Below the pieces are notes generated by a model. It worked only from the letters and a program-made list of their open reading frames with translations, had not been told where the DNA came from and ran no database searches. A program made the translations under genes and the position numbers. This document shows positions 1 to 39,201 of a stretch of 39,201 nucleotides of DNA, piece by piece (within the stretch, counting starts at the first letter, position 1; every line of letters starts with the position of its first letter). Source of the stretch: Jimgerdemannia flammicorona (Eukaryota); assembly GCA_003990765.1 (NCBI GenBank), contig RBNJ01000149.1, forward strand, positions 1-39,201, given 5' to 3'.

Positions 1-564
1 GTGACTGCATTCCGACTCAGCAAGGCACTTAGTGCTACATCCATATCTAGTATAGTCCAGATAGCCCCTCACTAGTATAAATACCCCCTCCCCCAGACCT
101 CAGAATCTCAGACTTGAACAATCCGAACACAACTTCTGAGCACTTCCCCACAATACTCCTTCACACAACTACTCCTAATATAGCAATATCATGAATAGCA
201 AATAAACCTATTCCATAACCCACAAACCACTCTTAAGTAAATCCGCTCTTTGTTAGGTCCTACTCCTAACCCCGTCACAAAATTTCCTAATTGGGTATTG
301 TCTGCAGCGATACGCCAATTCAACTAAGCTGGTCTTAGTTTCTTGAACTTCCTGAAATACGGAAAATCCTGAACATCCAGAACTAGTCCAGAAAAGGACT
401 TTGGTTGAGACGTCAACCCAATCTTGAAATCAATAAGCATAGAGGACGTACTCCATACGAAATTGATTTTGACCATAAGAAAACGGTCTTCCAGAATATC
501 CAGAATATTCAGAAAATCTTTCCAGAACTACGTAATGGTCACCCTAAAAAGTAACCCTCTTACA
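1..564 (+). repeat. Family A LTR, 3' part (copy A0, cut by window start)
   Basis: Homologous to 8364-8822, 16847-17102 and, inverted, to 6633-7126, 17103-17376/26134-26430 and 38629-39190. Ends in CTTACA at 559-564, TATAAATA at 76-83, AATAAA near 201. It abuts RNase H codons of family C rather than a PBS, so it is a 3' or solo LTR. Confidence 0.9.
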
Positions 565-7126: not shown

Positions 7127-8362
7127 TATTACATAGTGGTTACTAAGTTCTTTAAATATATCAAATTCTCTTCAAAGTGTATCTCTTAGACTAACTCAAG
7201 TTTGTTATAAGCAAGTTCTTATGGAAGTACCTTCCCAAGGTCTTATAGTCCTCAAACTTCTTATCTTTAAACTATCTTATTATCTCTTTAGATTACTTAC
7301 AAGGAATTGTATATATATATTACACTAAGTAGACTGACTTTATTTCAGAGAAAATAAGAGGGGTATTTATACAAAATATAATTCAATAGTTGCTAAGATA
7401 TAAAGCTAAATATAAATTCCAATAACTGAAATAAAATACCAGGATATGGAAAACTACTAAGTTCCAGTATCAGTACTGATGGTTGCACAGATTCAGGATG
7501 TTGGTATAATTTTAGTGATATAGGAAAATGGTATTGGAATAATTCTGAGTCACATCAGAATATCAGTGGAGGAACAGCTGTTACACAGGAAAAGAGTGCT
7601 AGTATAATTCAGTATAACTAAGGAACTTAGAGCAGAATGTTCAAGACTATAGAGGCTTCATCCTCATCAGAGGTCAGGATGTCTTTGAAGGAGATGAGAT
7701 CTATGAATGTCTCATCTATCTCATCATCATATAAGTCATATGTTTTACATATGTTGTGCAGGATGATATCATTGCTGATGATGTCATCATGTTTGGTGGT
7801 GGCAGGAACAAGGAAGTCTGGGGGCTCTCTAGTCTATGAGGTTCTCTTCTATGAAATAGGGGACAAATGTGGGGTTTTGGAGAGGTCTAACCTAGATACT
7901 TGGGCCTTGAAATACTGAGATCAATTCTTACAGGAATTGGTCTGGGTTGTTCTGAAGGATGAGATACCAGAAGTCTTCTACTTCATCACTATTAAGGGTG
8001 ATAGTAGACTGGGCTTCTGTAGCCACCCTGGCTTCTAGTGCATTGATATAGTGGGCTGACAGGTCTCTGAAGTCTGAGACTCTAATATACTCTAAGTTGG
8101 GAATCAACTATAATGTATGTCTGAAGATCTGATGAATCTTCTTAGCTGTTCTTATTTCATATATATTCATAAGAGTGGTATCTTATAACTCTTGAGGGCT
8201 GGCCTGTGGGAACTCCCAGTAGAGAAGGTTTCCTATTTTATACTCTTGCCATATTTAGAGACATTTGGTAGCAATAGTGATTCTTGTTTCTATTTTATAG
8301 TGGTAGAGGATAAAGTGATAAGGATCTGCAGTACCCAGGTTGATACTAGGAGATCTTCTTGT
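7127..8362 (-). repeat. Family B LTR fragment (diverged subfamily) containing the 3' two-thirds of the LTR ORF (7627-8362)
   Basis: Same-orientation homology to 17377-18563 and 24614-25791; begins TATTACATAGTGGT (= TGTCACATAGTGGT); other end missing. Confidence 0.88.
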
Positions 8363-8825
8363 GGACTTAAATAGATCTGAACATATAAGAACTTCTGAAC
8401 ACTTCTCCACAATATCTCTTTATATAACTACTCCTAGTATAGCAATATTATAAATAGCAAATAAATCTATTTAATAACTTACAAACTACTCTTAAGTAAA
8501 TCTGCAATCTGTTAGATCCCACTCCTAACTATATCATGAAATTTCCTAATTAGATATTGTCTGCAACAATACACTAATTTAACTAAGCTGGTCTTAGTTT
8601 CTTGAACTTTCTGAAATACAGAAAATCCTGAATATCCAAAACTAGTCTAAAAAAGAACTTTGATTGAGACATCAATCTAATCTTGAAATCAATAAGTATA
8701 GAGAATATACTCTATATGAAATTGATCTTGACCTTAAGAAAATGGTCTTTCAGAATATCCAGAACTTCCAGAAACCTCTTTCAGAACTATATAATGATAC
8801 TTTTATAAATAACTCTCTTATAACT

Positions 8826-8838
8826 TAATAGCAGTAGT
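8826..8838 (+). promoter_or_regulatory. Primer-binding site of family A, probably tRNA-Leu type
   Basis: Three copies read TAATAGCAGTAGT (8826), TAGTAGTAGCAGT (6629 minus) and TAGTAGTAGTAGT (38625 minus), 3 nt after the LTR end. Reverting transitions gives TGGTGGCAGCGGT, complementary to a common eukaryotic tRNA-Leu 3' end. The reconstruction is inference. Confidence 0.55.
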
Positions 8839-8861
8839 TTACAATCCAATTTTACTTTAAG

Positions 8862-11800
8862 ATGCTTTCTTACTCTACTATAAACCTCTATGAGAAATTT
8901 CTATAAGTTGGTATAAAGCCCAACCTCTGAACTGGAATTTATTCTGAACCATCTGATAATCCAGAAAGAATTGAACCTGATATATAAGGATAATTTGACT
9001 TCCACACTTATAACAAGTGGGATGGACTTCAACTACAAAAAGAAGTACTCTAATTAAATCAGTAAATAGGCAAAACTCTATATACCAAACTTCTTACTCT
9101 ATACCCCACAAGTCAAAATGAAGAAGATCTTATAAAAGTCTTCTTTACTCTTCTCAATAAGAGTTTTGTTAGCTCTATAAACCCAAGTAATCTAGGATAA
9201 CCAGTAGCTATCTTTCTAGCCTTAATTCCCCACAAAGCCTGAGCCTCAGTAGCTAAGTAGCACAACTCTATTAACTATTACTATATCAGAACCAAGACTG
9301 CCTTATTACTACTGTTTCCAGAATTATAAGATCTGCTATATTCTTAAAGAAGAAGTCAGAGAAATTCTTTATCAATAACCTGACTCTGAACCAGAAGTAG
9401 GCTCAGCTACAGCCCTATCTGAAACTGAAATCAATACTGAACCAGAACCAGCTTTTGAATTAAGCTCATCTGAAATCCAATATACAACTAATACTATCTA
9501 CTTCAATACTAAGCAAACTCAATCACATGGAACCAGAGTGAAGAGGAGAAGAAGTATTTTAGTGAATTCAATCTCAGATATACTACTGAAAGAGACATAT
9601 CTCTCTCAGAACAAAATACACCTACAGGATAACAAACAGTTATCTATCAAGCCCTTATACCAGATCTACAACAATTACTCCAGCAACTTATACAGACTCA
9701 AAGAACACCACTATACTCTGTACCAGTATCTCAAGTCATACCAGTAATATCACTATTAGTAGTCTAATCATCTTCAGTAAACAATATGGCAAATTAATAG
9801 ATTCTAGACCTCACAGCTCAGGTAGCCATAATGATAGCAACTATTACTACCTTAGCTTGACAGATCTGACCAATAAAAAGTCTGAGCCTACTTATCTTCA
9901 ATAGTGCTACACAGGAAGTCCAAAGCTTCATTAGTATAGTTGATATCAATTTTAAAGCCAATCAATAGACTAATGAGTAAGTTGCTGACCACCTTCTGAT
10001 AAACAATCAAGACCATACTTTGGAACAACTCTTTACTATCACTATGGCTTATATCTACCAAGTTGTTACATTCTTCTGAGGATCTACTAAAGAATAGTGA
10101 TGAATTCTTTCTGAAAAATCCCTTACATAGGATACCTGACCTACAGTTATTGCCCAAAATGCAACAAATAATACCTCTGGATATAGAGACCATCCTGCAG
10201 CCCCTGGGCTCAAATAGCTCAATATTACAGTAAAACTCTAATTGCTTAATCCTAAGTTAAACTCTATAATCTCAAATTTGATGTATATAGCAAAGAGGAA
10301 TTCAAAACCTTCTATACAAAACTGGAGTCACTCCTGAACACTGTTGGCCTAGGATACATTACCAATGATGAAGCACAAAATGGTACAAGAGCAGACCATT
10401 TATTCAACATACTATCTGAATAGCTTACAAGAAAGATCTAAGAACAAAGATACCCAGTTGATTGTGATTACCAATAATAGTATCTGATAAGAATCAAAAC
10501 TATGGTCAAGTAAATTCTAATAGCTGGACCAATTCTACCTGGAAGATAATTCAACAACAAGAAAAAAACTTGAACCAAGAAAGAAGAACCCAAGCATAAA
10601 GCATTCTGAGCTCTCTCTATATCTATCTTCTGGACATCTCAAAATCCTGAACTCACCTAGCTAAATACCTTCAAGAAACTCACTAAGAAGAAAGAAACAA
10701 ACTTTGAAGCAGAGTATGCTTTTATTGCTAAAAGACAGGACACATGGCCAGTGTCTGTCTCAACCAAAAACCCCAAACAGCAATATGAGCAACTGTTACT
10801 ACTCTGCATTGTCTCAACAATCTGATCACTAAGATATTAGACTTTATCAAGTTAAGACCAACTGCCATAGCCCCAACTAAAGGAAGTCAAAAGGCAGCTA
10901 GATATGATCTATATATAGCTAAAAAAGCTACAGTTTCCAACTAAGTTAAGTAAGTTTATATAGAGATCAGTATTCAAATTCCTGAAGGATATATTGAAAG
11001 AATATACTATTATAGCAGCCTAGTATTAAAAGGACTCTCAGTAAAAGGAGGAGTTATTGATCAAATTATATAGACAAAATAATTATCCTCATTCAAAACT
11101 ATAGCTGGACACTATTTAAGATTCTTATTGGTTTTTGTATTGCTCAGATCTTATTTAAAAAAATTGAGTTGACTCTGACAATCAAGAAAGTTCCTAAACT
11201 ACTGTCTACTATCTGAGGATCCAAAGGATTTGACTCATCAAACAAGACTCTAGCCCAAACTACTATGAATAAGAAAGAATAATTCTACAAGAAAATTAAA
11301 GATAGATTTGTACCTAGTGGTTGATGCCCCTATGTAGTATTGGAATGTACTTTTTCTGAATAATCAATAATTACTTCTCTTATATCAATGAACTGACTCA
11401 AAGGAGAACTAATAGAAGGAAAGTTCTTATAACTGAAATAACTACTATTGGATTAGACAAACTGCTTACACTCCAAGCTTTTGTCAATAGAGCACCTATT
11501 AAGATTAATATATATAGATAGTAGTACCTCAGGTAACTTCATCAATAAAGAAATAGCCAACAGACTCAAGGTCCTGATCTCTCCAGTACAACAGACTCAA
11601 ATAGTTGCTACTCAAACAGTTGCTACAGCTGATAGAACCTCTTATATTATTAGCAAGGAAGTCCACAACCTACTCTTATGAATTGGCAACTACTGAGTAT
11701 ATATTATACTCTAAATTATACTACTTCCTGACAACAAAATTATTCTTGAGACTCTATGGTTAAAACAAGAGAACCTTATGATCAATTAGATAAACTATTC

Positions 11801-14800
11801 TCTGATCATTAATAAAGGATGCCACAATTTCAAACTATAAGACAAAAGGGACCTACTCAATTCTAGTAATATAGGACCAAAGATCATCTACATCAACAAA
11901 CTACAACTCAAGAAATTAGCCAAGAAATGCCCTCTCTTTACTATCTCTATCTGACCATCTAAAGGAGAACTCAAGAATAATGAAGAAGACTTTTCCAAAG
12001 TTAATAGTTGTATTAGACCCCTACTTCAGAAGTTCTAAGATATATTTCCAAAGAAACTTCTAAAAGACCTACCATCTAAATAAGCAGTAGACCATACCAT
12101 CAAAACTATCCCAGATACCAAGTCTGCCTTCAAGTCAATCTACTACATATCTCTGAGAGAAATTAATATACTCAAGAAAGAAATTAATGAACTCCTAGAA
12201 TAAGGATTCATTAGATCTAGTATATTACTATATAGTATATTAGTCCTTATTGTTATCAAGAAAAGAAAAGATCTACAAATATGTATAGACTATTATGACT
12301 TCAATGAGCAAACTATCAAGAACTGCTGCCCACTATTCTGAATTGATGAAATATTCAATAGACTTACCAACCTACAGTTTATGAGCTCTTTTGACCTATA
12401 AAATAACTATTGGCAAATTACTATAAAGGAAGAAGACATCTACAAAACTGCCTTCTGAATCTGCTATAGATATTTTGAGTATCTGGTTATGTCTTTTAGC
12501 TTAACTAATACTTCTAAAATCTTCCAGATACTGATGAATACCATCCTACACCTATATCTAGATAAATTTATTATTGTCTACATTGATAACATTCTAGTCT
12601 TCAGCAAAACTCTAGAGAAATATCTCAAACATCTTAAACTAGTACTACTGAAGCTTTGAAAAAACTGACTCTTTGCAAAACTCAGCAAATGTGAATTCCT
12701 CCTGAAGGAAATTCAATTCCTTAGACACATTATTACTCTTAATGAAATCAAAGTAGACTCTAGCAAAATCTCTGCAATCAAGGATTAGCCTAGATCTAAG
12801 AAGCTAAAAGACCTCTAGTTATTCCTGAGACTAGCAAACTATTATCAGTGATTTGTTGCAAACTTTGCCAAGATTGCTACTACTCTTACTCAAATGACTA
12901 AGTACAGTAAAAAAGAAAAATAGTCCTGGACCACAAAGCAAGAGAAAGACTTTAACAATCTTATAAATTAGGAATCTGAACAAGATACAGCCTTTCAAGC
13001 CCTAAAGGATACCTTGATAATCACTTCAATACTTTAAGCAGCAAACTCTATCCTACTATATAAAGTTACCACTAATATCTCTGATCTAGTTCTTGAAGCA
13101 GTACTTATATAGGAAGGACACCCTGTGATCTATTATTCTCACAAGTTCAATGATGCCAAAATCAACTATACAACTCATGAGAAGGAGATGTTAGCTATCA
13201 TAGATACTCTAATCAAATGGCAACTATATCTTAAAGGAGTACACTTTACTATTTTAACAGACTACAAATCATTAGTTAACATCAAGATCCAGACTACCCT
13301 TTTCTGAAAGCAAGCCAGATGGATGAAAGTTCTCACCAACTTTGACTATGAAATCCAGTATCACCCTAGTAAGAAAAATATTGTTATGATATAATCTCCA
13401 GATCACTAATTGAAAAAGTTATCCAAACCCTCACCTTGGTTATCAACTCCATCATAGAATAAATTATTATAGTATGCACTAATGATAAAAAAGCTCAAGC
13501 ACTCCAAGAAATCCTGAGCAGTGATGATATTGATAAGTATACCTGGTACTATCAATACCAACTAAAGGACAATGCCATCTACTATAAGAACAGATTGTAT
13601 GTTCCTAACAATCAAGATCTCTGAAGGACTATCCTATTTAAATGTTATGATATCTCTACAGCCAGATATTTAGGATTTGACAAATGCTATAAAGTTATTT
13701 CCCAAAACTTCTACTGACCCTATATAGCAGATCAGCTAAAGACCTACATTACCTCCTATGATACCTACCAATACAACAAGTTCTCAACACTAGCAAAACC
13801 TGGCCTACTCTACTCTATTCTAGTACCATCTGCCAATTGGAAACAAATCTCTATAGACTTCATTGTATAACTATCCTGAACCAAGAATAGAAAAGATACA
13901 ATTGTTGTCTTTATAAACTATCTTAGCAAACAAGCATACTTTGTATCTACTGCTATAACTGTAATAACATCTGAAATCACTATACTTTTATTTGACAATA
14001 TCTTCTACTATCATGGTCTTTCTAAGATTATTATTAGTAACCAAAATCCAAAGTTTACCAGCTACTTTTGGAAAGCTCTTCATACATATATATCTTAGAA
14101 TGAAACTTATACTATCTACAACCTTTTACTCTAAAACTAATGGCCAAACTGAAAGAATGAACTAAACTCTAGAATAAATACTAAGGAACTATATTTCTTA
14201 TAGACAAGATAATTAGTATGAATACCTCACTACAGTCAAGTTTGCCTATAATAATAGTAAATAAGTCTCTCTTAAAATGACCCCATTCTTTGCCAATATA
14301 GAATAAAATCCAAACACCCCTCTGATACTAATCAGAACTATTGATGAACTCTCTACTGTCAAAGTTATGAAAGAATTCTTACTCTGAATATATAACTTAA
14401 GCCAGATTGCAATTGAGAATTTATCTTGAGCTTAAGAACAATAGTCATAGTATATCAACCAGCACTATTAAGAAGAAACTTTTAATATTGAAGAAAAAGT
14501 TCTACTAGATATCAGAGGATATTAAGTTGACAACCTCAAGTACAGATTCTCTATAAAGCTGAATAGCAAATTCATTGGACCATTTGAAGTTATTGCATAA
14601 GTTTCTCCAACTTTCTATAAATTGGCACTATTAGATATTATTAAGATTTACCTAGTCTTTAATGTCTAACATCTCAAGTAATATAATAAAAATGATAATA
14701 AGCTATTCTTGAACTAAACTACAAAACCACCTGCACCTATCATTATTAATGACTAATAAGAATATAAAGTTGAACAAATCCTCAATAAATGTAACCACAA

Positions 14801-14924
14801 GAACCACCCAAAATATCTTATCAAATGGAAAAGTTATCTGATCTATAATATAATATGGAAACTCAAAACTAATCTCTAGAATACCACTGACTTAGTTTAA
14901 GAATATGATTCTTTAAATAACTAA
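8862..14924 (+). pseudogene. gag-pol: Degenerate single-frame gag-pol of A1
   Basis: CFYC*KTGHMASVC knuckle (~10717-10758); protease IDSSTSGNFI (~11514); RT motifs ICIDYY*LN, FGLTN-like and VYIDNILVFS (~12576); RNase H YTTHEKEMLAII and FTILTDYKSL; integrase IDFIV*L and KTNGQTERMN; chromodomain EYKVEQILNK...YLIKWKSY (14760-14910). Confidence 0.9.
10835..11240 (+). pseudogene. dut: dUTPase domain of family A, between Gag zinc knuckle and protease
   Basis: FIKLRPTAIAPTKGSQKAARYDLY (motif 1), SSL (motif 2), GGVID (motif 3), IAQI (motif 4), *GSKGFDSS (motif 5, RGxxGFGSS); in frame with the knuckle. Confidence 0.88.
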
Positions 14925-15366
14925 AACTTGAACACTCCAGTATTTATTAATCCATACTATATATTACCTCTCTTGAATATTAAGTACTCTTATAATTATC
15001 ATAAATAAAATCAGAAACTCAGTAAGTTAAGATAAAAGAATACTGATTCTCTAGAAAAATAGCAAAACTGAAAGCCAGCCTATTCTCCCTATACTACTAG
15101 TGGAAAATGAGATATAGATATTCAAGAAGATCCTTTAGAGGAAATTCTCCAGCAGTAAATAATATCAGAATTACTTCTAGCATATAGTATTAAATACATG
15201 ACTCTTTAATATATGAATCTAATATATTAGGCAACTATACTATGAGTATGCTACTTTCTGAGAAAAATGAACATTACCAGACTTTTGACAATTCAAATAA
15301 TATAACAATACTAGACTAAAATTAGAAGACCTCAATGAGAATGTCAAAAGCTAAGAAGAGAAGAGT

Positions 15367-17102
15367 TATAAGTATACAACATCTAAGCCACTGAAATCAC
15401 ATGTCACTCTCAGAACAAATCTAGAAATTATATGTAAGATCATAAAGCTGAGTCAAACCAAAGTTACAGAGTACAAAGTTGAGTCAACTCAAAGTCACAG
15501 AATATAAGAATTATATAAATAGAACTTTATTACTTAGGACTGAATACATATATACCAAGTACTCAAATATATCAAAACAGAGAACTGCAATAAACTAAAC
15601 AAATAACTATAACTCTTGAACATATATACAACTATGACTACCAAGATCTACAACTACATCTATACTGATATTTAGAATGCTATTATCAACTAAGCCATAC
15701 CTCTTCTGCCCCTCATGAATATCCATAGCCTGATATCTTTCTACTTCATGAAAGCCTACTAAAATACTCTGAACATACTCAGCAAAGCCTACTAAATTAG
15801 ACAAATCTCAAGCTACTACTAGATCAACTGCCTTCTAGAAGATATGGTTAAACACTACATGATACAGATATTATCTAGATATCTTAATATCAGAAACTCA
15901 TTATCTATAAATACTAAGAACTTTTTTATAAGTATAGTACCTTTATTCTCTACCTCTAAGTTATTACTACAAAAATAGTTGCCACTCTATCCTATAGCCA
16001 AATTGATGATATGGTACAAGAACTCAACCACAAGTACATTAAGTATATTCAAACTATAGACAGAACCTTCTCACACTCTGATGACTATATTCTGTAAATG
16101 CTCTAAGTAAGATATGCTATAAAGGACATCTATAATATAATTTAGTTTAATAATAATAAAATAGAAGATAATGATCCCTCTGATACCAACATAACCTCTA
16201 GCCAAAGATCCCTGCCAGCTCTGATCACTCTACTAATCTTACTAATGAACTTACAATAGTTCATAACCACTTATAAGACCTATTGGAATAATGACCACTG
16301 GTATAAATATCAACTCACATTTACATCCAACTACTTTAACTATAATGAGGAGACTGGAGAATACAATCTGTACCTCCAGACAATCCTCAAGATCAAATCA
16401 ACAACTCTATCTCCTGAGTATAAATAAAATGAACTACAGCTATCAGCATACTACAACTCTATAACTCATAGTACTATTATCTATAGAAGGTATGCAGATA
16501 GTAAATCTGATGAAAGTGAAGATGATATACTTCTTCTCTATCTACTAATACTTTACCCAGTATATAAGACAGATAATGCCATCTTATGAGATAGTGATAT
16601 AGTTCTAACCTACTACTACATAAATGAATAAGGAGACATAATTCAAGAACTACTCTTCTTAGATAACTACTTTATCAGAGATAATATTATCAATAGTGAT
16701 CTTATTAAAAACTATTTAGATAGCATCTAAATCTATAGATAGCTTAGCAGTTATTAGTATAGTTAGATTAACCTTATATGATATAACTGTATACTGACTC
16801 AGCAGTCAGATGATCTCTTGATATATCAGTTTACACTTATACTATATGACTATATTCTAACTCAATAAAATACTAAGTACTATATCTATAATTAGCATAG
16901 TTCAGATAGTCTTTAATTAGTATAAATACCCTCTCTCCCAGACCTCAGAAACTCAGACTCAAATATATCCAAATATGTAAGAACTTCTGAACACTTCTCT
17001 ACAATATCTCTTCACATAACTACTCCTAGTATAATAATATTATAAATAGTAAATAAATCTATTTAATAACCCACAAACTACTCTTAAGTAAATCTGTATC
17101 CC
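15367..17102 (+). repeat. 3' LTR of A1 (last ~310 bp displaced by A2 insertion)
   Basis: Follows purine tract AAGAAGAGAAGAG (15353-15365); begins TATAAG (TGTAAG in copy A2), the inverted repeat of the CTTACA end; TATA box at 16921. Confidence 0.88.
15634..16730 (+). pseudogene. Unknown ~365-aa ORF inside the family A LTR (U3)
   Basis: ATG 15634 to TAA 16730 with one frameshift near 15855; internal stops are one transition from Q/R/W codons and several are sense codons in the other copy (26541-27639). Confidence 0.75.
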
Positions 17103-17376
17103 TGTAAGAGAGTTATTTATTAAGGTAACTATTACATAATTCTAGAAGAGTTTTCTGGAAGTTCTGGATATTCTGGAAGACTATTTTCTTTAGATCAAGA
17201 TCAATTTTATATAGAGTATATTCTTTATGCTTATTGATTTCAAGATTGGGTTGATGTCTCAATCAAAGTCCTTTTTCAGACTAGTTCTGGATGTTCAGAA
17301 TTTTCTATATTTCAAGAAGTTTAAGAAACTAAGACCAGCTTAGTTGAATTGGTATATCATTGCAGATAATATCTAA

Positions 17377-18905
17377 TGTCACATAGTGGTCGCTGAGTTC
17401 TTCAAATACATCAGATTCTCTTCAAGGTGTATCTCTTAGACTAACTCAAGTTTGTTATAAGCAAGTTCTTATTGGAGTGCCTTCCCAAGATCTTATAGTC
17501 CTCAAACTTCTTATCTTTAAACTGTCTTGTTATCTCTTAGATTGCTTGCAAGGAATTGTGTGTATTGCACTGAGAGGAACTAACTTTATTTCAGAGGAAA
17601 TAAGAGGGGTATTTATACAAAATATAATTCAATGGTTGCTAAGATATAAAGCTAAATATAAATTCCAATAACTAAAACTACTAAGTTCTAGAGTCGGTAC
17701 TGATGGTTGTACAGGTTCAGGATACTGGTATAATTCAGTATCACATCAGAATACCAGAGCTGGAACAATTTCGCATCACCTCAGAATGCCAGTACTGGCA
17801 TTATCCAGTGTTATATGAGAATACCGATACTGGCATTATCTAGTGTAACAAAGAACTTAGAGCAGAAAGTTCAGAATCATAGAGACTTCATCCTTATCAT
17901 TACTGAAGGAGATAAGATCTGCAAACTCATTATATAGGTTACACATTTCACATATGTCACATGGGATGATATCATTGCCAATGACATCATCACATTTGGC
18001 AGGGAAATCGGGAACAAGATCTGGAGCTCTCCAGTCTATGAGGTTCTCTTCCACAAAGTAAGAAACAAATATGGAGTCTTGGGGAGGTCTAACCTGGATG
18101 CTTGGGCCTTAGAATACTGAGATCAATCCTTGCAGGAATTGGTCTGGGTTGTTCTGAAGGATGGGGTGCCAGAAGTCTTCTACTTTATCACTATTGAGAG
18201 TGATAGTGGACTGGGCTTCTGTAGCCACCCTGGCTTCTAGTACATTGATATGGTGGGATAACAGGTCTCTGAAATCTGAGACTCTAATATACTCCAAGTT
18301 GGGAATCAATCATGGTACATACCTGAAGATCTGATGGATCTTCTTAGCTGTCCTCATTTCACATATATCCATGGGAGTAGTATCTTGTAGCTCTTGAGTG
18401 CTGGCCTGTGGGAACTTCCAGCAGAGGAGGTTTCCTATTTCATACTCCTGCTATATTTGGAGGCATTCAGTAGTAATGATGATCCTTGTTTCCATTTCAC
18501 AGTAGTAGAGGATGAAGTGATAGAGGTCTGCAGTACCCAGGTTGACACTAGGAGTCCTTCTTGAGCAGGTCCCCATGGCTCTTCTGATGTCTTGGAATAT
18601 TCTTTCCTCGATTAAGGTGCCTTGGTGGTTCCTTGACCTTGAGGTTTGGTGGGCAGCAGGCATTTCATTTGTGGTAAGTCTTTGAGCTATTTTGGGATTG
18701 GTGGTTCTTGTTGGTTGCTGCTACTGCAGTTCCTCAATCCTTCTTTTATATTCTTCAGGATGCTTATACTATAGTCACAATGACTCACAGTTGGTCATCA
18801 TTGCTCATCTCATATGCCATATGATCTTCTTGTGCTCTGATCTGGTGGCTTGCAAGGAAAGGCTGTCTCCTGTGCTGATGTCATCATTCTGGGGTCACCA
18901 TTACA
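17377..18905 (-). repeat. 3' LTR of element B (1529 bp)
   Basis: Minus strand begins TGTAATGGTGACC after a short purine-rich tract (AGAAGAACGA) and ends ATGTGACA; TATAAATACCCC at ~17607-17618. Confidence 0.93.
17857..18663 (-). pseudogene. Unknown 268-aa ORF wholly inside the family B LTR (ORF4)
   Basis: ORF-track pieces 18451-18663, 18109-18309 and 17857-18054 are all in one frame, separated by three stops; in the other LTR two of these positions are TGG and CAA. Confidence 0.85.
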
Positions 18906-19207
18906 TCGTTCTTCTAAATAAGGATCTTTTTGAGCATCCTTATTCATTGGTCCAGTCCTGAAAAAATTGCTGATCCCATAACCTCTGGCAAGGGGTTGAA
19001 AAGTGGTGTTTATGGACTGGCATCTTCTCTTTGTATTTTGGCATAATGGTGAAGGGTTGCTCCTTTCATATAGAGCAAGGGCCTGATTCTGATCTTGATC
19101 AATCAGTTGACAGTTTGAACTCCTCTGACTTCGAAAGTCTCATGGATGAGTAGTTGCTAGTATCATATCCCTTAGAGAATGGTCTAGACAGATAGCCTGC
19201 TAGTCAT
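18665..19207 (-). pseudogene. Putative unknown 180-aa ORF spanning the PPT/LTR boundary of element B (ORF3)
   Basis: ATG 19207 to TGA 18665 is exactly 181 codons and ends 1 nt before the ORF4 ATG. It has many internal TGA/TAA/TAG (roughly 15), each one transition from R/Q/W codons; at least one TAA is CAA in the 5' LTR. Confidence 0.5.
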
Positions 19208-19260
19208 GAGACATGCTGTTATGATTCATGGACTAGAACCTCGCAGGTGGTCATCATGTT

Positions 19261-20466
19261 TTACTTCTCTTATATAGGTTTGTGGTACTTCTTGAGTCTG
19301 TTCCTATATACTGTAGTAGGCAGTATGGTCCCTGAGATTTTTCTAAGCCAGAAGGTAGTTATCTTGATATCTTGCACATAGAAGAGTCCTTCCCATTTGG
19401 GCTCCAGTTTTCACAACCATGAGGCTTCTATCATATTTTGATATAGTAGAACCTTTTCTCCGATTCAGATGGGTTCTAGGGTCTTGTGATTCTTTTCTGC
19501 ATTCTTCCTTATCAGTACTTGTAACTTGGTGATATAATCTTCAGCCTTCTTCCTAATTTGGTGTAGTCTCCAGATTTCTACATCAATCTGTCTCCAAGTT
19601 AGGTCTAGATTTATAGCTGAGGTTCCATCAGAATCTTCTTCTCTGAAGAGTAGCTCCCTTGGGGTAAAGTGTATACTCTGTGACCATATGTCTTATAGGA
19701 CAGAGAGGGTGGTTGGGAGATAGTTATCCCAATTCTCATATGTCTCTGAGATCTTCACTAGAATGTTCTTAAGAGTCTTATTGGTTCTCTCTATCTGTCC
19801 ATTTTCTTGAGAGTGGTATGCAGTGGTCTTGATGTGCTAGATCTTGTATTTCTGATACATTATCTCATAGAATCCATTGACAAATTCTGTGCTATAGTCT
19901 GTTGTGATTTGCTTTGGTGTCTTGTAGCAGCAGATGATTTCTCAGTACAGGAAGTTGGCTATAGAGAGGGCATTGGCTTCTTGTAATGCTCCTGCCTCTA
20001 TCTATTTAGTAAAGAGGTCTACAATAACTATAATATAGCAGTTTCCTGATAGTGTTACTGGTAGTAGTCCAATGATATCTATTGCGATGTGGTGGAAGGG
20101 GATAGGCTCAATTCTTGATGACCTGGATGCCTAGTCTTGCTAATCTTGTTTCTGTTTTTGGCACTTGTCACACCCTTTGATAAATTGGTGCAGGTCTTCT
20201 TCCATCTTGGGCCACTACATGGTTCTTCTTGCCTTATCATATATATTGATTCCTCCTAGGTGTCCTTACTCATATACTTCCTTCATTACTTGATACTTCT
20301 TGTGTTCAGGTATTACTAGCTTTCCTCCTTTTCTGAGTATAGTGTTGTCTAGTTCAAACTGTTTCCAAGTCCAGTTGATGATGGTGATTATCCAGAGTTC
20401 AAGGTGGTTGGGCATCTTCTGCTGCCCAAGATAGCTGATTAATCCATAGTATAGCTCCTTATTCAT
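19261..20466 (-). pseudogene. int: Integrase of element B (zinc-binding HHCC remnant, DDE core, GPF-like module; no chromodomain)
   Basis: GHLGG...WPKM...CDKCQ, IAIDIIGLLP, IVIVDLFTK, ITTDYSTEF, TTAYHSQENGQIERTNK, KLEPKWEGLF; 402 codons without net frameshift. Confidence 0.9.
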
Positions 20467-23400
20467 GTTGAATAGTCTTGATGGGGGTGTTTCAGGATGT
20501 TATTGAGAGTGCATTGGTATTGGTGTTGGTCTTTCCTGAGTGGTGCTTGATGGTACAGTCATACTATTGTAGCCTGTAGATCTATCTGGCATATATTTCT
20601 TTGGAGTTCAGAGTGTGGAATAGCTAGGCAAGAGTGGAATGGTCTGTTTGAATGGTGAAGTATTTCCCAGCTAGGTAGTAGTGGAACTTGTCTACTGCCC
20701 AAACTACTACTAAGCATTCGAGCTTGCATGACTCGTAGTTCTGTTCTGCTCTGCAGGTACCTCAGCTTGTATAAGAGATGACATATTCATGTCCATCTTT
20801 CTTCTGAGCTAGGACTGCTCCAAGTCCTATAGTACTTGTATCTGTCTGTAGGATAAATTCTAGGTTCCAATCTGGTCTTCTGAGGATAGGTGCTTGGGTC
20901 AACCTGGTCTTGAGTTTATTGAAGATTTCTTGGCGCTCTTTGGTCCATTCAAATTTGGTCTCCTTCTTCAGTAGCTCATAGATAGGTGCTACAATGTTGG
21001 AGTATCTTTTGATAAATCTTCTGTAGTAGCTGGCCAGTCCAAGGAAGGTGTGGACTTCTGTGATTGTTCTGGATCTTGGGTAGGCTACAACAGCCTCGAT
21101 CTTCATAGGGTCTGTGTGGATTCTGGTCTGATTGATGAGGTGTTCTAGATAGGTGATTTCTTGAGCTGCAAACTTACATTTCTTAGGCTTAATGTAGAGG
21201 CCATGTTTCTTGAGCTTCTTGAGGGCTAGCTGTATGTGATTGACATATTCCTGTGCATTGTTGCTGAAGATGATCACATCATTAATATAGACAAAGAGCT
21301 ATTTTCCAATCTCATTGCTGAAGACTCTGTTCATCATTCACTGAAAACTTGCAGGGGCATTGCACATTCCAAATGGCATTTGCAGATAGATATAGGTGGC
21401 ATTAGATATAATGAAGGCTGATTTCTCACTGGTATCTTGAGTGAGACCAATCTGATGGAAGCCTGAGAACAGATCCAAGGTGGTGTAGTATTTGGCTTCG
21501 CTTCCAAAAGTAGTAAGAATTTCTTGAATATTTGGTAAGAGTTGTCTATCCTTCTTGGTGATAGCATTGAGTTTCCTATAGTCAATGCAGAGTCTTGGCA
21601 CAAACTCTCTAGGCTTGCTTCCTTTCTTTAGAGCAAGGATAATGGGTGAGGCCCAGGGGCTGATAGCTTGCTTGATGATTCTGGCTTCTTCCATTTCCTT
21701 GAGTTCTGCTCACAGCCATTCTCTATAGGCAGGTGGTATGGGTCTGGCTTTCTGGTAGATGGGCTTGGTATCACCAGTATCAACTTCATGGTAGTACTTG
21801 AGTTCTTGATTGTAGATATCCCTGAAGTCTGTAGCAAGTACTCCTTCATTCTAATGCAGGATCTTGAGAAGTTGTTCCTCTAGAGGAAAGTTTTTTCCAA
21901 TAGTGTATGTATGCTTGATCTGATCCTTATCTTTCTTATATTCAAGTTTGGTAATCTTGGTAGCAGTATAGACTCCTCTTCCAGTAGATCCAAAGCCTTA
22001 TTCTCCTCTCTTGGTCTTGATGTGTTTGATAGCTTCAATGATCTTGGGTTTCTTGACTTTGTAGATCAGTATCTGGCCAATCCTGTCATACTTCTTGACT
22101 TCGAATGGAGTGGTGGAGTTGTGATTTCTGACTATGAGAAAGATCTCACCAGTGTAATTAGGGTCAATTACTCCTCCTTCAACTGAGATTTTGCTTTTGG
22201 CCAGACTGCTCCTGGTCTTGATAATTCTGGTATGATTTTCTGGTAGCTTGACTCCAATTCCAGTGCCAAGTAGGGTGGTGGTCTGTGGTTCAAGGGTAGT
22301 ATCTTGAATGCTGGCAAGGTCCATTCCTATAGCTCCTTTAGTCTTGTATTCTGGGATCTTGGCTTTGGGGTGAAACTTCTTGACCTTGAGGGTGATGTCT
22401 GATTCTTGTTCCTCCTCATCATCACTGTCAGCTTGGAGCTCTGGGGTTTGGTCATCTTCTTTGGCTTTCCTTTTTGCTTCAGTGGCTTCTTGCTCATATT
22501 TCTATTGGTAGATTTTCCTGACTTCACTGATACAGGACCAGCAGTCATTCAGGTGTTTGGAGCAGTACATCCTAGTACTATGGGGCATCTCTCTTGAGGG
22601 ACATACCCATCAATGATCTTGTTATATGTACCACTGCTCATCTGTGAGCTTGGGTGTCTTGTTCTTGTTCATATTCTTATTTACCGAGTATATGAAGATC
22701 TCTGTGTCTTCTTCATCTCCTTCCTCTATGTCTGGTAGAACTCCTTTGTGAACATTGATAGAGACTCATACCTTTCTTCCTCTATAATTGATCTGCATCT
22801 TCTGGGCATTGAGGTCAATGATGGCCTTGACCTTGTGAAGTCATTGGTTGCTAATGAGGATATCATAGTTAGTGGCACTTGTGACAATCACATCTACTGA
22901 GATAGTAGCTCCTCCTATCTTGATGGAGACTTCTCAGATTTTGCCAAGGGGGGTAGCTCATGTACCATCTGCTATGATATAGACCATCTTTGTGGACTCT
23001 TCAATGTCTCAACCTAGGCAGTCAATTGCCTTCTTACTTATGAGGCATCCTCTAGCACCAGTATCAATGATGGCATCAAAGATACAGTCTTCAATCTAGC
23101 AGAGAGTATAGGCTGATGTCTTGCACTGGTCTTCGAATTCTTCACCTGAGTTCTCAGATTCTTCCTGTGCATTGTAAGCTTCTACAATCTTGTACTCTTG
23201 ATTCTTGGCAGTAGTTGTAAGTCCTACTCTCAACTGCTGTCTGAAGGCAGGGACTTCAGCTAGCTGTCCAAAGGTAGCATTGACCTTCTGTTCCTTGAGA
23301 TCCTTGTAGATATCATACTGGTGGATCTTGGTCTTGTGTAGCTTCTGTTCCTTCTTGCTTGCACTTTTTCCTGAGACTGGAGTAGTGCCTTCAATAATTT

Positions 23401-24487
23401 GGCAGGCAGCTTTATCTAACTCTATATCTTGATCAATCTCCTCAGGTTGGGTCTTGCCTTGAATAGTGACAGCTGGGGTCTTCTTTGGTCTTCCAACTGG
23501 CTTGCTATTGCTCTTCTTGTCATAGGGCTTGGACCAGGTTCTGGTATCTTCAGTAGTAGGGTAGAATTCAAGCTCCTCATAGTATTCTTCATTATCAGTG
23601 TCACCAATCTCCTTGATGACTACTGCATTGGTTTGTTCTCTGGTTCTGCTAGCATTGCTTGGTTGGGCCTTGCATCTTGTTTCAGTCATACAATTCTTTG
23701 CATAGTGGCCTTCTTCTCCACATCTGAAGTATATGATATTGCATTCTTCTATAGCAGCTGCAAATCTCTATACTGGTTTCCTGTTGGTGCTTTGGACTTC
23801 TCTAACAACATCACCAAGGTGTGCAGTCATCTTGGCAAACTGCTTGGCAAGTTCCTCCACTGGGTCAGCTTTGGCTGTCTTAGGGGTAGATGAGATTGGT
23901 TGTCTGTTTACAACTGTAGCAGGTATGATACTAGTTGACTTTGATGGCTCTATCTTGATGCCAGTTATTTTCTCCATTGAGTGTTCAGTAGAGTGTCTGG
24001 CAGTCCAATATCTCTGTACAAAGACCACTTTCTGATCAAGGGTCAGTATAGCTGAGATAGACTGGATTACTAGGGCAATTTCAGAGTGAACTCCTTTGAG
24101 GAAGGTTGAATCTACTATTTGTTCCTTGAGGTGGTCATCATAGCCAGCCAAGACAATCTGATAGCAGATTCAGATATAGAATGAGTTGGGATCTTCACTA
24201 AGTCCCTGGCAGATAGTATTAAGTTGATCCTTGAGAGCTTGCTTGATCTCTTCGGTATAATATGTTGTTCTGAGGAAGACCTTCATGTTAGTAAGTTTGG
24301 CTGCACCAGTATCAGCAATAGTGGCTGCATTGAACTTGTCTCTGGCAGGTTCTCTGAGGCTGACTAGTAGAAGGGCCAATTGAGCATCCACACCAAGAAC
24401 TCATATGGCAGCAAATTGTTCAAAGTCTTCAATGAAGGTCAGGATTGACTCTTCAGTAGTATATTCATAGAATGTGGGGGAGTGCAT
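20459..24487 (-). pseudogene. gag-pol: gag-PR-dUTPase-RT-RNase H of element B in one reading frame
   Basis: All minus-strand ORF-track pieces from 24619 to 21277 share a frame; knuckle (Y/C)FRCGEEGHYAKNC (~23690-23731), protease IIDTGA (~23055-23072), RT SPWASP, RLCIDYRKLN, LDLFSGFHQI, MPFGMCNAPASFQ, VYINDV, RNase H LQTDTSTIGLGAVL. Confidence 0.92.
21979..22390 (-). pseudogene. dut: dUTPase domain of family B, between protease and RT
   Basis: KKFHPKAKIPEYKTKGAIGMDL, TRSSLA, GGVIDPNYTGEI, DRIGQI, RGE*GFGSTG: all five trimeric dUTPase motifs. Confidence 0.95.
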
Positions 24488-24593
24488 TTCTATCTTATCT
24501 TGAATTCTTACAGGAGTGACTCTTGTAGTCAGGGTAGTTGTTGTGAGGGTTGTTTGTTTTTCAGCTTGAAAGTGAGAGATTTGTCTTAAATCA

Positions 24594-24610
24594 CCAGCCA
24601 GTGGGCACCA
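24594..24610 (-). promoter_or_regulatory. Primer-binding site of element B (tRNA identity undetermined)
   Basis: TGGTGCCCACTGGCTGG begins 3 nt (ACT) after the CA end of the 5' LTR. Confidence 0.65.
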
Positions 24611-24613
24611 AGT

Positions 24614-26133
24614 TGTCATATAGTAGTTGCTGAGTCCTTCAAATATGTCAGATTCTCTTCAAGGTATATCTCTTAGACTAACTCAAGTTTGTTATAAGCA
24701 AGTTCTTATTGGAGTGCCTTCTCAAGATCTTATAGTCCTCAAACTTCTTATCTTTAAACTGTCTTATTATCTCTTAGATTGCTTGCAAGGAATTGTGTGT
24801 ATTGCACTGGGAGGAACTGACTTTATTTCAGAGGAAATAAGAGGGGTATTTATACAAAATATAATTCAATAGTTGCTAAGATATAAAGCTAAATATAAAT
24901 TCCAATAACTAAAACTATTAAGTTTCAGGGTTGGTACTGATGGTTGTACAGGTTCAGGATGCTGGTATAATTTAGTATCATATTAGAATACCAGAGCTGG
25001 AACAATTTTGCATCACCTCAGAATGCCAGTACTGGCATTATCCAGTATTACATGAGAATACTGGTGCTGGCATTATCTAGTGTAACAAAGAACTTAGAGC
25101 AGAAAGTTCAGGATCATAGGGGCTTCATCCTCATCATCACTGAAGGAGATAAGATCTGTGAACTCATTGTGTAGGTCATACATTTCACATATGTCATGCA
25201 GGATGATGTCATCACCAATGACATTATCACATTCAGCAGAGAAATCAGGAACAAGATCTGGAGCTCTCCAGTCTATGAGGTTCTCTTCTACAAAGTAAGG
25301 AATATCTTGGGGAGGTTTAATCTGGATGCTTGGGCCTTGGAATACTAAGATCAATCCTTGCAGGAATTAGTCTGGGTTGTTCTGAAGGATGGGGTGTCAG
25401 AAGTCTTCTACTTCATCACTATTGAGAGTGATAGTGGACTGGGCTTCTGTAGCCACCCTGGCTTCTAGTGCATTGATATGGTGAGATGAAAGGTCTCTGA
25501 AATCTGAGACTCTAATATACTCCAAGTTGGGGATCGACTATGGTGCATGCCTGAAGATCTGATAGATCTTCTTAGCTGTCCTCATTTCATGTATATTCAT
25601 GGGAGTGGCATCTTGTAGCTCTTGAGTACTGGTCTGTGGGAACTCCCAGTAGAGGAGGTTTCCTATTTTATACTCCTGCCACATTTGGAGGCATTTGGTA
25701 GCAATGGTGATTCTTGTTTCCATTTTATGGTAGTAGAGAATAAAGTGATAGAGGTCTGCAGTACCCAGGTTGATACTATGAGTCCTTCTTGAGTGGGTCC
25801 CCATGGCTCTTCTGATGTCTTGGAACATTCTTTCCTCAACTAAAGTACTTTGGTGGTTCCTTGACCTTGAGGTTTGGTGGGCAGCAGGTATTTCATTTAT
25901 AGTAAGTCTTTGAGCTATTTTGGGATTGGTAGTTCTTGTTGGTTGCTGCTACTGCAGTTCTTTAATCCTTCTTTTATATTCTTCAGGATGCTTGTACTGT
26001 GGTCACAATGACTCACAGTTGATCATCACTGCTCATCTCGTATGCTGTATGATCTTCTTGTGCTCCAATCTGGTGACTTGCAAGGAAAGGCTGTCTCCTG
26101 TGCTAATGTCATCATTCTGGGGTCACTATTATA
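24614..26133 (-). repeat. 5' LTR of element B (1520 bp), with second copy of ORF4 (25094-25891, start decayed to ATA)
   Basis: Direct repeat of 17377-18905, differing mostly by transitions and one 9-bp in-frame deletion near 25300. Confidence 0.93.
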
Positions 26134-26540
26134 CTAATTAGGAAATTTCATAATGTAGTTAGGAGTGGAATCTAACAGGATACAGATTTACTTAAGAGTA
26201 ATTTGTGGGTTATTAAATAGGTTTATTTGCTATTTATAATATTACTATACTAGAAGTAGTTGTGTAAAGGAATATTATAGAGAAGTGTTCAGGAGTTGTA
26301 TTCAGAAGTCTTATCTCAGATTCTGAGGTCTGGGAGAGAGAGTATTTATACTAATGGGAGACTATCTGAACTATACTAAATATAGATATAGCACTTAGTG
26401 CCTTACTAAGTCAGAATATAGTCACATAGTATAAGTGTAAACTGATATATCAAGAGATCATCTGACTGCTGAGTCAGTATATAGTCATGTCATATAAGGC
26501 TAATCTAACTATACTAATGACTGCTAAGCTATCTATAGAT

Positions 26541-27639
26541 TTAGATGTTATCTGGGTAGTCTTCAATGATATCACTATTAATGATATTATCTTTGATAAA
26601 GTAGTCATCTAAAAAGAGTGGTTCTTGAATTACTTCTCCTTATTTGCTCAGATAATAATATATTAGGACCTTGTTACTATTCCACAAGATAGTATCATCT
26701 GTCTCATATACTGAATATAGAGTTAGTGGGCAAAAGGAGAGGTGTATCATCTTCACTTTTATTAGATTTGCTATCTGTATACCTTCTATAGGTTACAGTA
26801 CTGTATGTTGCTGAGTTGTAGTAAGCTGGCAGCTATACTTTATGTTACTCATACTCAGGTAGTGGAATTGTAGGTTCAATCTCAAGGATTGTCTGGAGGT
26901 ATAGATTGTATTCTCTAGTCTCTTCATTATAGTTGAAGTAATTGGAAGTGAATGTAGATTGATACTTATACTAGTGGTCATTATTTCAATAGGTCTTATA
27001 GGTAGTTATGAACTATTGTAAGTTTATTAATAATATTAGCAGAGTGATCAGGGCTGGCAGAGATCCTTGGCTAAAGATTATATTGGTATCAGAGGGATCA
27101 TTATCTTCTGCTTCATCATTATTGAACTAAATTATATTATAAACATCCTTTATGGTATATCCAACTTGAGGCATCTGCAGAATATAGTTATTGGAGTGTG
27201 GGAAGGTTCTGTCTGTAGTTTTAATATACTTGATATACTTGTGGTTGAGTTCTTATACCATATCATCAATTTGGCCATAGGACAGAGTGGTGACTATTTC
27301 AGTAGTGATAACTTAGAGGCAGGGAATAAAGGTGCTATACTTGTAGAAGAGTTCTTGGTATTTGTGAACAATGAGTTTCTGATGTTAGAACATCTGGATA
27401 ATATTTATATTATGGTGATATTCAATCATATCTTCCAGGAGGTGGCCAATCTAGTAGTAGCTTGAGATTTGTTTAATTTGGTGGGCCTTGCTAAGCATAT
27501 TCAGGGTATTCTATCAGGCTTCTACAAAGTAGAGAGATACTAGGCTATAGATATTTATGAGAGGCAGAGGAAGTGTGGCTTGATTGACAATAGCATTCCA
27601 AATATCAGCACAGATATAATTATAGATCTCAGTAATCAT
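26541..27639 (-). pseudogene. Second copy of the family A LTR ORF
   Basis: MITEIYNYICADIWNAIVNQATLPLP...IIEDYPDNI*; colinear with 15634-16730; one frameshift near 26730. Confidence 0.75.
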
Positions 27640-28347
27640 ACATAGTTGTAGGTATATTCAAGAGTTGTTGTTATTTGTTTTGTTTGTTGTGGTTCTTTGT
27701 TTTGATATATCTGAGTACTTGATATATATATATTCAGTCCTGATTGGTAAGGTTTTGTTTGTATAAATCTTATATTCTGTAACTTTAAGTTGACTCAGCT
27801 TTATGCTCTGTAACTTTAGTTTGACTCAGCTTTGTAATCTTATATATGATTTCTAGATTTAATCTGAGGGTGATATGTAAATTCAATGGCTTGGAGGTTA
27901 TATACTTACAACTCTCTCCTTCTTAGCTTTCAACATTCTCATCAAGCTCTTCTAATTTTAGTCTAGTATTATTATACTATTTGGATAATTAAAAGTCTAG
28001 TAATGTTCATTTTTCTCAGAAAGTAGTATACTTATAGTACAGTTGCCTAATATATTGGATTCATATATTAAAGAGTCATGTATTTGATACTATGTACCAA
28101 AAGTGATTCTGATGTCATTTAAGAATTTCCTCTAAGAAATCTTCTTAAATAACTATACCTTATTTCCTACCAGTGGTATGGGGAGAATAGACTGACTTTC
28201 AGTTTTACTATTTTTCTAAAGAGTTGGTATTCTTTTGTCTTGTCTTGCTGAGTTCTTGATTTTATTCATAATAATTATAAGGGTACTTAATATTTATAAG
28301 AAGTAGTATATAGTATAAGACTGATAGGTGTTGGAATACTTGGGTTT

Positions 28348-32120: not shown

Positions 32121-32287
32121 TGGTTCAGTATTGATTTCAGTTTCAGATAGAGCTATAATTGGGCCTACTTCTGGTTTAGAGTCAGATAGTTGATGAAGGA
32201 TTTCTCATCTTTCTCTGGTAATATTCAGGTTACACAATCTTTTGGCAACACTTTCAACACAGTTTCTGGAGAAAAGCTACTAGTATC

Positions 32288-34318: not shown

Positions 34319-34348
34319 GGATTGATTGAGAACAAACCATATTTCATT

Positions 34349-37300: not shown

Positions 37301-37847
37301 AAGGGGACCAGGCCAGGATCTGTGGCCTAGTGGTTGGCAAGGAGTTGTAATTGGTGAGGAGTGGGACTGGCAGGGAGTTTGGACCTAGAGTGCTGCAGTG
37401 AAAAATTGGATACTGCTGAAGTACTGGGTGGTCTAGTGGCATGTGCTGAGAAGGAATGTGATGCTTAACTTCTGCTCAGGACACCTTGTTGTAGGGGGCT
37501 GCTTTGACTGTGAGGAGTGCCATAATGTAGGGCAGGAAGGGGAATTTGTACAGATGCCAGAACATTGGCTAGGGGAGTGTGAGGTGTTGGGAGACTTTTG
37601 GCAGGCCATTGGGGACTGCTTGGGGGTAAGACATAGGGGGGATGATGTATGGGAGAGGTGGGAGGACCTGAGGGATCGACTGATAGGAGGGGTAGGGGAG
37701 GAGTAGATTACTCTAGGCTGGGCATTGGCTATTTGGGTTGGGCTGGCTGGTTACTGGCTATTTGTATTTGAGGAGGAGAGGCGACAGAGCTTGGGGAGCC
37801 GGTTATCATGGTGGCAGTGCCTTATGGAGGATATCTTGACAGACTAG
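34349..37847 (+). pseudogene. LINE ORF2: APE endonuclease, reverse transcriptase, C-terminal zinc finger (true end uncertain, possibly ~38005)
   Basis: SLNVNGLRG, FLLQD, LGGDFN, RIDWIL, PGEDG, FLDQEKAYD, QGDPLSP, AFADD, RYLGI, CEEC...EHWLGEC; several stops and a frameshift at ~36326. Confidence 0.92.
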
Positions 37848-38628: not shown

Positions 38629-39201
38629 TGTAAGAGGATTACTTGTTAAGGTAACCATTACATAATTCTGGAAGAGTTTTCTAGAAGTTCTAGATATTCT
38701 GAAAGACTGTTTTCTTTAGGTCAAGATTAATTTTATATAGAGTACATTCTCTATACTTATTAATTTCAAGATCAGATTAATGTCTTAACTAAAGTCCTTT
38801 TCTGGACTAGTTCTAGATGTTCAGGATTTTCCATATTTCAGAAAGTTTAAGAAACTAAGACCAGCTTAGTTGAATTGGTATTTGCTGCAGATAATATCTA
38901 ATTAGAAAATTTCATGATATGGTTAGAAGTGGGATCTAATAGGGTACAGATTTACTTAAGAGTAGTTTGTGAGTTTTTAAATAGGTTTATTTACTATTTA
39001 TGATATTGCTATACTAGGAGTAGTTATATAAAGAGATATTATGAAAAAGTATTCAGAAGTTGTATTTAGAAGTCTTGTCTCAGATTCTGAGGTCTAGGGG
39101 AGAGGGTATTTATACTAATAAGAGGCTATCTAGACTATACTAAATATGGATATAATACTTAATATCTTGCTGAGTCAGAATGCAGTCACATAGTATAAGT
39201 G
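38629..39201 (-). repeat. 5' LTR of A2 (3' part; continues beyond window)
   Basis: Reverse complement of 1-564; ends CTTACA on the minus strand, followed by the decayed PBS and gag 5' region (38081-38625). Confidence 0.92.

Follow-up and report, generated by a model that had tools for sequence, protein, structure and literature searches.

A putative gene of about 365 codons in the U3 region of a chromovirus long terminal repeat from Jimgerdemannia flammicorona

We analyzed contig RBNJ01000149.1 of Jimgerdemannia flammicorona (assembly GCA_003990765.1) from position 1 to 39,201 of the forward strand, and this whole stretch of 39,201 nucleotides is called the window here. Self-comparison and domain scans revealed that the window is a nest of retroelements in eukaryotic repeat DNA. 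Two copies of one element, family A, lie in it in opposite orientation (A1 and A2), and their 3' long terminal repeats (LTRs) very likely contain a sense open reading frame (ORF) of about 365 codons that is broken in both copies. This frame, which an earlier interpretation made from the letters of the DNA (the sequence-only reading) had pointed out, is the subject of the present work. The coordinates of all features are collected in Table 1. Downstream of a dUTPase, the pol region of A1 gave domain matches to RVT_1, the reverse transcriptase (RT; E 2.7e-16), RT_RNaseH (E 5e-21), Integrase_H2C2 (E 1e-5) and SH3_Tf2-1 (E 5e-10). A match to the Chromo domain had an E value of 6.6e-5 and, with 23.2 bits, stayed slightly below the cut-off of 25.1. 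The domain set of A2 is identical to that of A1. Furthermore, the element has TG...CA ends of its LTRs, a polypurine tract (PPT) before the 3' LTR and a primer binding site (PBS)-like string after the 5' LTR, as chromoviruses do. Judged from these domains, which bear out the earlier claim of a chromovirus as carrier, family A is a Ty3/gypsy chromovirus. A1 and A2 align over 6 kb with about 82% identity, and 916 of the 1015 differences between them are transitions.

Table 1. Positions of the family A copies, their reading frames and LTR signals, and of the other elements in the window
Feature	Position	Strand	Remarks
Family A copy A1	8364-17102	+	from self-comparison and domain scans
Family A copy A2		-	5' LTR runs off the window edge at 39201; from self-comparison and domain scans
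A1 pol region	10864..14910	+	dUTPase (10864-11064), RT, RNase H, integrase zinc domain, SH3_Tf2-1, Chromo (ends ~14910)
ORF copy in A1	15634..16730	+	ATG at 15634, stop 16728-16730; 16 internal stops
ORF copy in A2	26541..27639	-	ATG 27639-27637, stop 26543-26541; 13 internal stops
PPT of A1, AAGAAGAGAAGAG	15353..15365	+	followed by T, then TATAAG at 15367-15372
PPT of A2, AAGAAGGAGAGAG	27912..27924	-	followed by T, then TGTAAG at 27910-27905, the LTR start
3' LTR of A1	15367..17102	+	~320 nt missing at its end, where the end of A2 abuts
3' LTR of A2, main part	26138..27910	-	U3 with ORF, TATA box, R, part of U5
3' LTR of A2, last 273 nt	17104..17376	-	split off by the family B insertion
TATA box of the LTR, TATAAATA	16921..16928	+	190 nt past the ORF stop; in 5/5 LTR copies covering it
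AATAAA	17052..17057	+	in 6/6 LTR copies; ~320 nt past the ORF end
TGASTCA sites (AP-1/Gcn4-type)	15449-15455, 15480-15486, 16795-16801; in A2 27822, 27791, 26470		in both LTR copies
Remnant of A1 5' LTR	8364..8821	+	from just after the TATA region to a CTTATA end; then PBS-like TAATAGCAG/TAGTAGCAG
5' LTR of A2, last ~570 nt	38629..39201	-	ends at the window edge, ~100 nt before the ORF stop would be reached
3' part of another family A LTR	1..564	+	CTTACA at 559-564; unrelated flank beyond
Further family A LTR piece	about 6630-7128	-	
Family B Ty3/gypsy element	17377..26133	-	nested in the A2 LTR; protease, dUTPase, RT, RNase H, integrase
Family B LTRs (~1.52 kb)	17377-18905 and 24614-26133	-	
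Long interspersed nuclear element (LINE)	32123-38080	+	within the A2 gag region; AP (apurinic/apyrimidinic) endonuclease and RT, terminal poly(A)

The two copies of the ORF were found exactly where they had been placed before, with a common start and a common stop. Both window copies that cover the region contain it (2/2), which is the pattern of an additional ORF (aORF), an extra frame present in most copies of an element. We used the first 301 codons of the A2 copy, with stops read as X, as a HMMER query against 1,835,955,588 representative proteins. Exactly two proteins matched, P0002 (128 aa, 70% identity, E 3.4e-50) and P0001 (247 aa, 58% identity, E 1.4e-57). Both are free of stops, and each stems from one short contig, the two metagenome sources being different. 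P0002 begins with the same first methionine as the window ORF, and P0001 ends with the same last residues as the window copies before their stop. A tblastn comparison of P0001 and P0002 with the window matched the two ORF copies only, in sense orientation and in five segments with E values from 1e-75 to 4e-30, 1e-57 among them. Elsewhere in the window no match was better than E 0.69; the ORF is hence without visible similarity to family B, as had been stated. Word-based searches for more relatives returned the queries themselves or nothing, P0002 and alignment A4 gave pattern matches and no confirmed relative among metagenome contigs, and alignment A4 found no relative among viral contigs.

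Alignment of A1 with A2 revealed 1-nt indels at A1 position 15857 and at A1 16536/A2 26735, and the open relatives assign each of them to one copy. A1 is shifted by a 1-nt deletion near 15857, since P0002 aligns to A2 in one frame and to A1 in two. A2 is shifted by a 1-nt insertion near 26730-26735, where P0001 aligns to A1 in one frame and to A2 in two. The expectation of one frameshift per copy, at different places, was thus confirmed. Of the 29 internal stops, 27 align to Q, R or W in P0001 or P0002, and the other two share a single column in which the aligned residue is N.

In each of the three ORF segments the base composition varies periodically with codon position (chi-square p 2e-4, 3e-5 and 6e-4 in the better copy). 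Over the six segment-copy tests the p values range from 3e-5 to 0.02, and pol shows the same pattern. No periodicity is seen in the LTR flanks on either side of the ORF (p 0.76-0.96). In addition, a codon table was trained on the element's own pol, and the per-codon likelihood was compared among frames. This model preferred the proposed frame in five of the six segment-copy tests and found no frame preference in the flanks. For the main segment of A1 (226 codons) the proposed frame reached -3.775, the next sense frame -3.919 and the in-phase antisense frame -4.074, which puts the proposed frame ahead by 0.14 nats per codon. Because periodicity, codon model, open relatives and the alignment of the stops agree, we conclude that the frame is the wreck of a real gene and not a chance opening. 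The central claim of the sequence-only reading, a hidden and formerly coding frame, therefore holds, and a real gene is what we very confidently expect here.

Raw stop counting was rejected as a coding test. Over about 364 codons we counted 17 (A1) and 14 (A2) stops in the proposed frame and 21 and 14 in the in-phase antisense frame, so that the two are not separated; the true pol frame has 16 stops in 458 codons. It had also been argued that stops in one copy are often W or Q codons in the other. This argument did not survive, because each of the stop codons can arise from a Q, R or W codon by a single transition, and between copies that differ by transitions the observation holds for any frame.

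Both ORF copies in the window are inactivated, by transitions and by one frameshift each. Compared with the open forms, the commonest replacements are P>L (25), D>N (20), E>K (17), T>I (16) and H>Y (14), and P>S and A>T are also common. Such replacements stem from C>T and from G>A changes about equally often. The observed/expected ratio of CpG is 0.0 in A1 and A2, 0.06 in family B and 0.19 in the LINE. We read the pattern in A1 and A2 as the signature of a repeat-directed process that struck both strands heavily with C>T/G>A changes and made stops out of Q, R and W codons of the ORF. In family A, the sense strand has few G and many A (GC skew about -0.25). At 59% of the C/T differences between A1 and A2 the 3' neighbour is an A, which could reflect either CpA-type mutation or the opposite decay of old CpG sites. 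Codon-position bias was discarded as a test for selection: a raw deficit of differences at position 2 vanishes after normalising, and pol shows none. Since pol is likewise unbiased (p 0.68), the comparison of A1 with A2 records only neutral decay.

The position of the ORF within the element depends on the limits of the LTR. Its 3' end is firmly fixed, because four copies are common up to CTTACA and one of them, the copy at 1-564, diverges immediately thereafter. The remaining three run on into a shared PBS-like string and internal sequence. A CTTACA end followed by the PBS-like TAGTAGCAG was found in 3/3 5' LTR copies, and the string presumably resembles the primer site for initiator tRNA-Met. 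At the other end, the 13-nt PPT is the only purine run of at least 10 nt downstream of the chromodomain, and it is conserved in A1 and A2. The TGTAAG that follows it in A2 is the exact inverse of the 3' terminus CTTACA. It occurs a single time in 5989 nt of A2, abutting the PPT, and the TATAAG of A1 is the same motif with a G>A change. On the plus strand, the A2 terminus CTTACA reads TGTAAG at 17104-17109. With the nested family B element and one CTAA copy removed, the A2 LTR measures 273 + 1773 = 2046 bp. LTR limits set by the PPT and by TGTAAG...CTTACA ends, with the LTR start upstream of the ORF, were thus found as claimed by the sequence-only reading.

Within these limits the ORF begins 267 nt inside the LTR and 269 nt downstream of the last base of the PPT. 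It occupies the sense strand between the LTR start (15367/27910) and the TATA box (16921), and not the internal region upstream of the PPT, which is the place of the aORF type. The AATAAA downstream is likely the polyadenylation signal that ends R. Because the ORF follows the PPT/TG boundary and lies upstream of the TATA box and the AATAAA, we place it in U3. Since no 5' LTR in the window reaches the ORF, this placement is drawn from the structure of the element, and we hold it to be highly probable.

The predicted protein of about 365 codons has no membrane segment (highest 19-residue hydropathy 0.97), and its grand average of hydropathy (GRAVY) is -0.36 and -0.81. An env-like protein was ruled out by the absence of a hydrophobic or membrane-spanning segment. 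The C-terminal part of 247 aa (P0001) is strongly acidic, with an isoelectric point (pI) of 4.05 and 46 D+E versus 10 K+R; it contains 24 P, 23 Y, 20 T and 19 Q and no Cys. Pfam searches with P0001, P0002 and the window translations returned no family at E values up to 10. A sequence search of the PDB gave no match for P0001 and three for P0002 at E 1.1-2.2, none of them credible. The ESM Atlas gave no usable feature match or neighbour, its model having a predicted local distance difference test (pLDDT) of 0.39 and a best template modelling (TM) score of 0.30. On shallow alignments, AlphaFold2 predicted five or six helices in the N-terminal 128 aa with low confidence (mean pLDDT 49.5) and reached a mean pLDDT of 31.0 over the remaining 247 residues. 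The merged amino-acid string given by the sequence-only reading is a reconstruction from which the mutations have been removed. As far as sequence searches can tell, the product is an orphan that belongs to no known family.

We considered whether there might be no gene at all, only a chance open stretch in a non-coding U3, with P0001 and P0002 as spurious calls on the same repeat. Gene callers on short metagenome contigs do call any long ORF, and the raw stop counts do not tell the sense frame from the in-phase antisense frame. However, at about 3 stops per 64 codons, 247 codons stay open by chance with p ~7e-6 (our own arithmetic), and the open frames agree in strand, phase, start and stop with the frame chosen by periodicity and codon model, while the flanks of the same LTR lack periodicity. 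The explanation is largely refuted, and we give it hardly any weight. A real ORF might, on the other hand, be internal, lying between pol and a much shorter 3' LTR, with the tract at 15353 not serving as plus-strand primer. No 5' LTR with the ORF is seen in the window, fungal chromoviruses as a rule have short LTRs of a few hundred bp, such as the 339-443 bp of crapaud (PMC10787394), and according to excerpts of a review additional ORFs commonly lie between pol and the 3' LTR (PMC7264820). Against this, the match between the 5' LTR of A2 and the 3' LTR extends as far as the edge of the window (corresponding to A1 16834), and therefore an LTR start after the ORF is confined to the 104 nt of 16731-16834, where neither a purine tract nor TGTAAG was found. 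Moreover, both copies have kept the PPT-T-TGTAAG junction upstream of the ORF, and this junction mirrors the CTTACA end. An internal ORF is accordingly quite improbable in our view.

A further explanation leaves the gene in U3 and denies it a role. The ORF would be a passenger, that is, part of a host gene or of some other mobile element that was caught in U3 and spread with the LTR; young copies would be open for no other reason than their youth. Gene capture by LTR retrotransposons has been described (PMC7264820, in excerpts), the protein has no family and only two relatives, its acidic C-terminal part looks weakly structured in the low-confidence models, and selection is not demonstrable from the differences between A1 and A2. 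Yet a complete frame with the same methionine and stop is kept in two window copies and two relatives, and the relatives differ also by changes other than C>T/G>A (N>D 11, D>S 6, I>V 5, L>I 5). No host-like homologue appeared among the 1.84 billion representatives. We regard a mere passenger as rather unlikely. Our preferred interpretation is that the ~2046-bp LTR of the family A chromovirus holds a sense gene of about 365 codons in its U3, and taken as a whole we think it probable, though by no means assured. The sequence-only reading had taken the ORF for an accessory gene, a term that implies function. That it serves the element in this way and is no mere passenger is a narrower proposition, for which the chances appear to us to be about even.

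Several results weigh against this U3 gene. Only two relatives were found in very large databases, and both are fragments, from contigs of 998 and 1180 nt. Under the codon model, segment 1 of A1 ends in a tie, so that the frame is not favoured there, and the differences between A1 and A2 show no codon-position bias after normalising for mutable sites (p 0.27; for pol p 0.68). No 5' LTR or solo LTR in the window carries the ORF; of the four other LTR pieces examined, two are cut by the ends of the window and two are truncated near the TATA box. Upstream of the ORF no conserved promoter was detected, as a TATA-like string near 15514 in A1 is unmatched in A2. TGASTCA is not enriched in the window, where 15 sites compare with 9.4 +/- 3.1 expected and 8 of 100 shuffles reach 15. 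Finally, the structure models are unusable (mean pLDDT 31 and 49.5), and what can be said about function therefore comes from composition.

If the U3 gene is accepted, a life cycle for it can be sketched. U3 would be copied to both ends in each retrotransposition, so that each fresh insertion would bring two copies of the gene with it, and the gene would persist in solo LTRs. In the genomic transcript, the ORF of the 3' LTR would fall within the final ~1.7 kb and be followed by the polyadenylation signal of the LTR itself. Expression might most simply proceed by splicing or from a subgenomic RNA of the 3' end of the element transcript, as in retroviral genes in or overlapping U3; a promoter of its own within the first 267 nt of U3 would also be possible. 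Two of the TGASTCA sites stand in a duplicated unit of about 31 nt upstream of the ORF, and the third stands about 120 nt upstream of the TATA box of the LTR. As the tail is acidic and rich in aromatic residues and no membrane segment is present, our guess for the product would be a soluble regulatory or adaptor protein, for instance an acidic activator or a host-factor binder, and not an envelope. Going further, U3 of this chromovirus might hold a functional trans-acting gene whose activator- or adaptor-like product raises transcription of the element itself or weakens the genome defence of the host, a suggestion that we make as speculation and believe unlikely to be right in full.

The other elements of the window surround and interrupt family A. 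The family B element is flanked by a target duplication CTAA at 17373-17376 and 26134-26137. An unrelated ORF had been claimed for the family B LTRs. A simple stop count of these LTRs found 15-47 stops in each frame and no open run longer than 136 codons, hence no clearly open frame by this measure. A dUTPase upstream of RT occurs in both Ty3/gypsy families (E 5e-7 in A; E 1.4e-24 in B, between protease and RT). A fragment resembling the family B LTR (79% identical, without its last ~340 nt) lies at 7131-8361, between two head-to-head remnants of family A 5' LTRs. Both of these remnants are cut at most about 40 nt from the TATA box/presumed transcription start (positions equivalent to 16918 and 16956). 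The LINE is G-rich (GC ~52%, GC skew about +0.45), and about 1.8 kb of family A sequence is missing at its site. An inverted relative of this LINE (69% identical) is found at 3064-5593, adjoining another family A fragment. Scans for tandem repeats and Rfam families yielded nothing relevant.

LTRs of retrotransposons are normally taken as purely regulatory DNA. To our knowledge, annotation pipelines do not look for genes in LTRs, where mutated copies would hide any frame, and a gene housed in U3 is a layout that we know among retroelements mainly from the superantigen of mouse mammary tumour virus (MMTV). A 2-kb chromovirus LTR with a gene inside is unusual. If our interpretation is true, each element would hold the U3 gene twice, solo LTRs would retain it, and it could be expressed independently of gag-pol. 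Found in a chromovirus, such a gene would reveal a new way for retrotransposons to gain accessory functions and pass them on, and an orphan protein family would gain a defined genomic context. Should an unrelated ORF also prove to exist in the LTR of family B, LTR-borne genes would be a recurrent strategy in this genome. If the gene is a passenger, the finding would be a curiosity of LTR growth.

The superantigen gene sag of MMTV is an ORF in the U3 of the viral LTR and encodes a type II membrane glycoprotein. Like sag, the window ORF is a sense frame of a few hundred codons that lies wholly in U3, and is thereby in both LTRs and at the 3' end of the genomic transcript. Unlike sag, its predicted protein has no Pfam family (E up to 10) and no membrane segment and is strongly acidic, and the carrier is an env-less chromovirus retrotransposon instead of a retrovirus. 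Foamy virus tas/bel and lentiviral nef are 3'-proximal accessory genes of retroviruses that overlap U3 and are located after env, and foamy virus Tas has an acidic activation domain. The window ORF is comparable to them as a gene downstream of pol, in or into U3. They encode a small soluble regulatory protein, to which the predicted window product may be likened, and its acidic C-terminal part might be similar to the activation domain of Tas. In contrast to the window ORF, however, tas/bel and nef only overlap U3 and follow env, and there is no homology. Excerpts of a review list Tat, Rev and Nef as accessory factors (PMC7264820).

Among retrotransposons, aORFs are known in plant Ty3/gypsy and copia elements and in Boty of Botrytis (excerpts of PMC7264820), an "add. 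ORF" with unknown function is reported for fungal chromoviruses (excerpts of PMC2864245), and ORF3 of bdelloid elements is another additional ORF (excerpts of PMC5408684). The window ORF shares with the aORFs that it is an extra sense ORF downstream of pol in a Ty3/gypsy element. It differs in position, as aORFs are internal and mostly between pol and the 3' LTR (excerpts of PMC7264820), whereas the window ORF comes after the PPT and inside the LTR. In the same review the phrases "within the LTR", "in the LTR" and "inside the LTR" occur 0 times. Literature searches for phrases denoting an ORF inside a retrotransposon LTR led mainly to MMTV sag and to unrelated uses, which is no proof of absence in print. 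With respect to the carrier, dUTPase-carrying fungal chromoviruses include PosPlaTy3 of Postia placenta and elements of Phanerochaete and Tuber, and the excerpts of this source, which record dUTPase domains for elements of basidiomycetes and of Tuber, mention no LTR-borne ORF in them (PMC2864245). Family A resembles these elements in having a dUTPase before RT and a chromodomain, a likeness of the carrier and not of the ORF. Although no membership by sequence or architecture follows from the comparison, the closest analogue in layout for the putative U3 gene of family A would be sag of MMTV.

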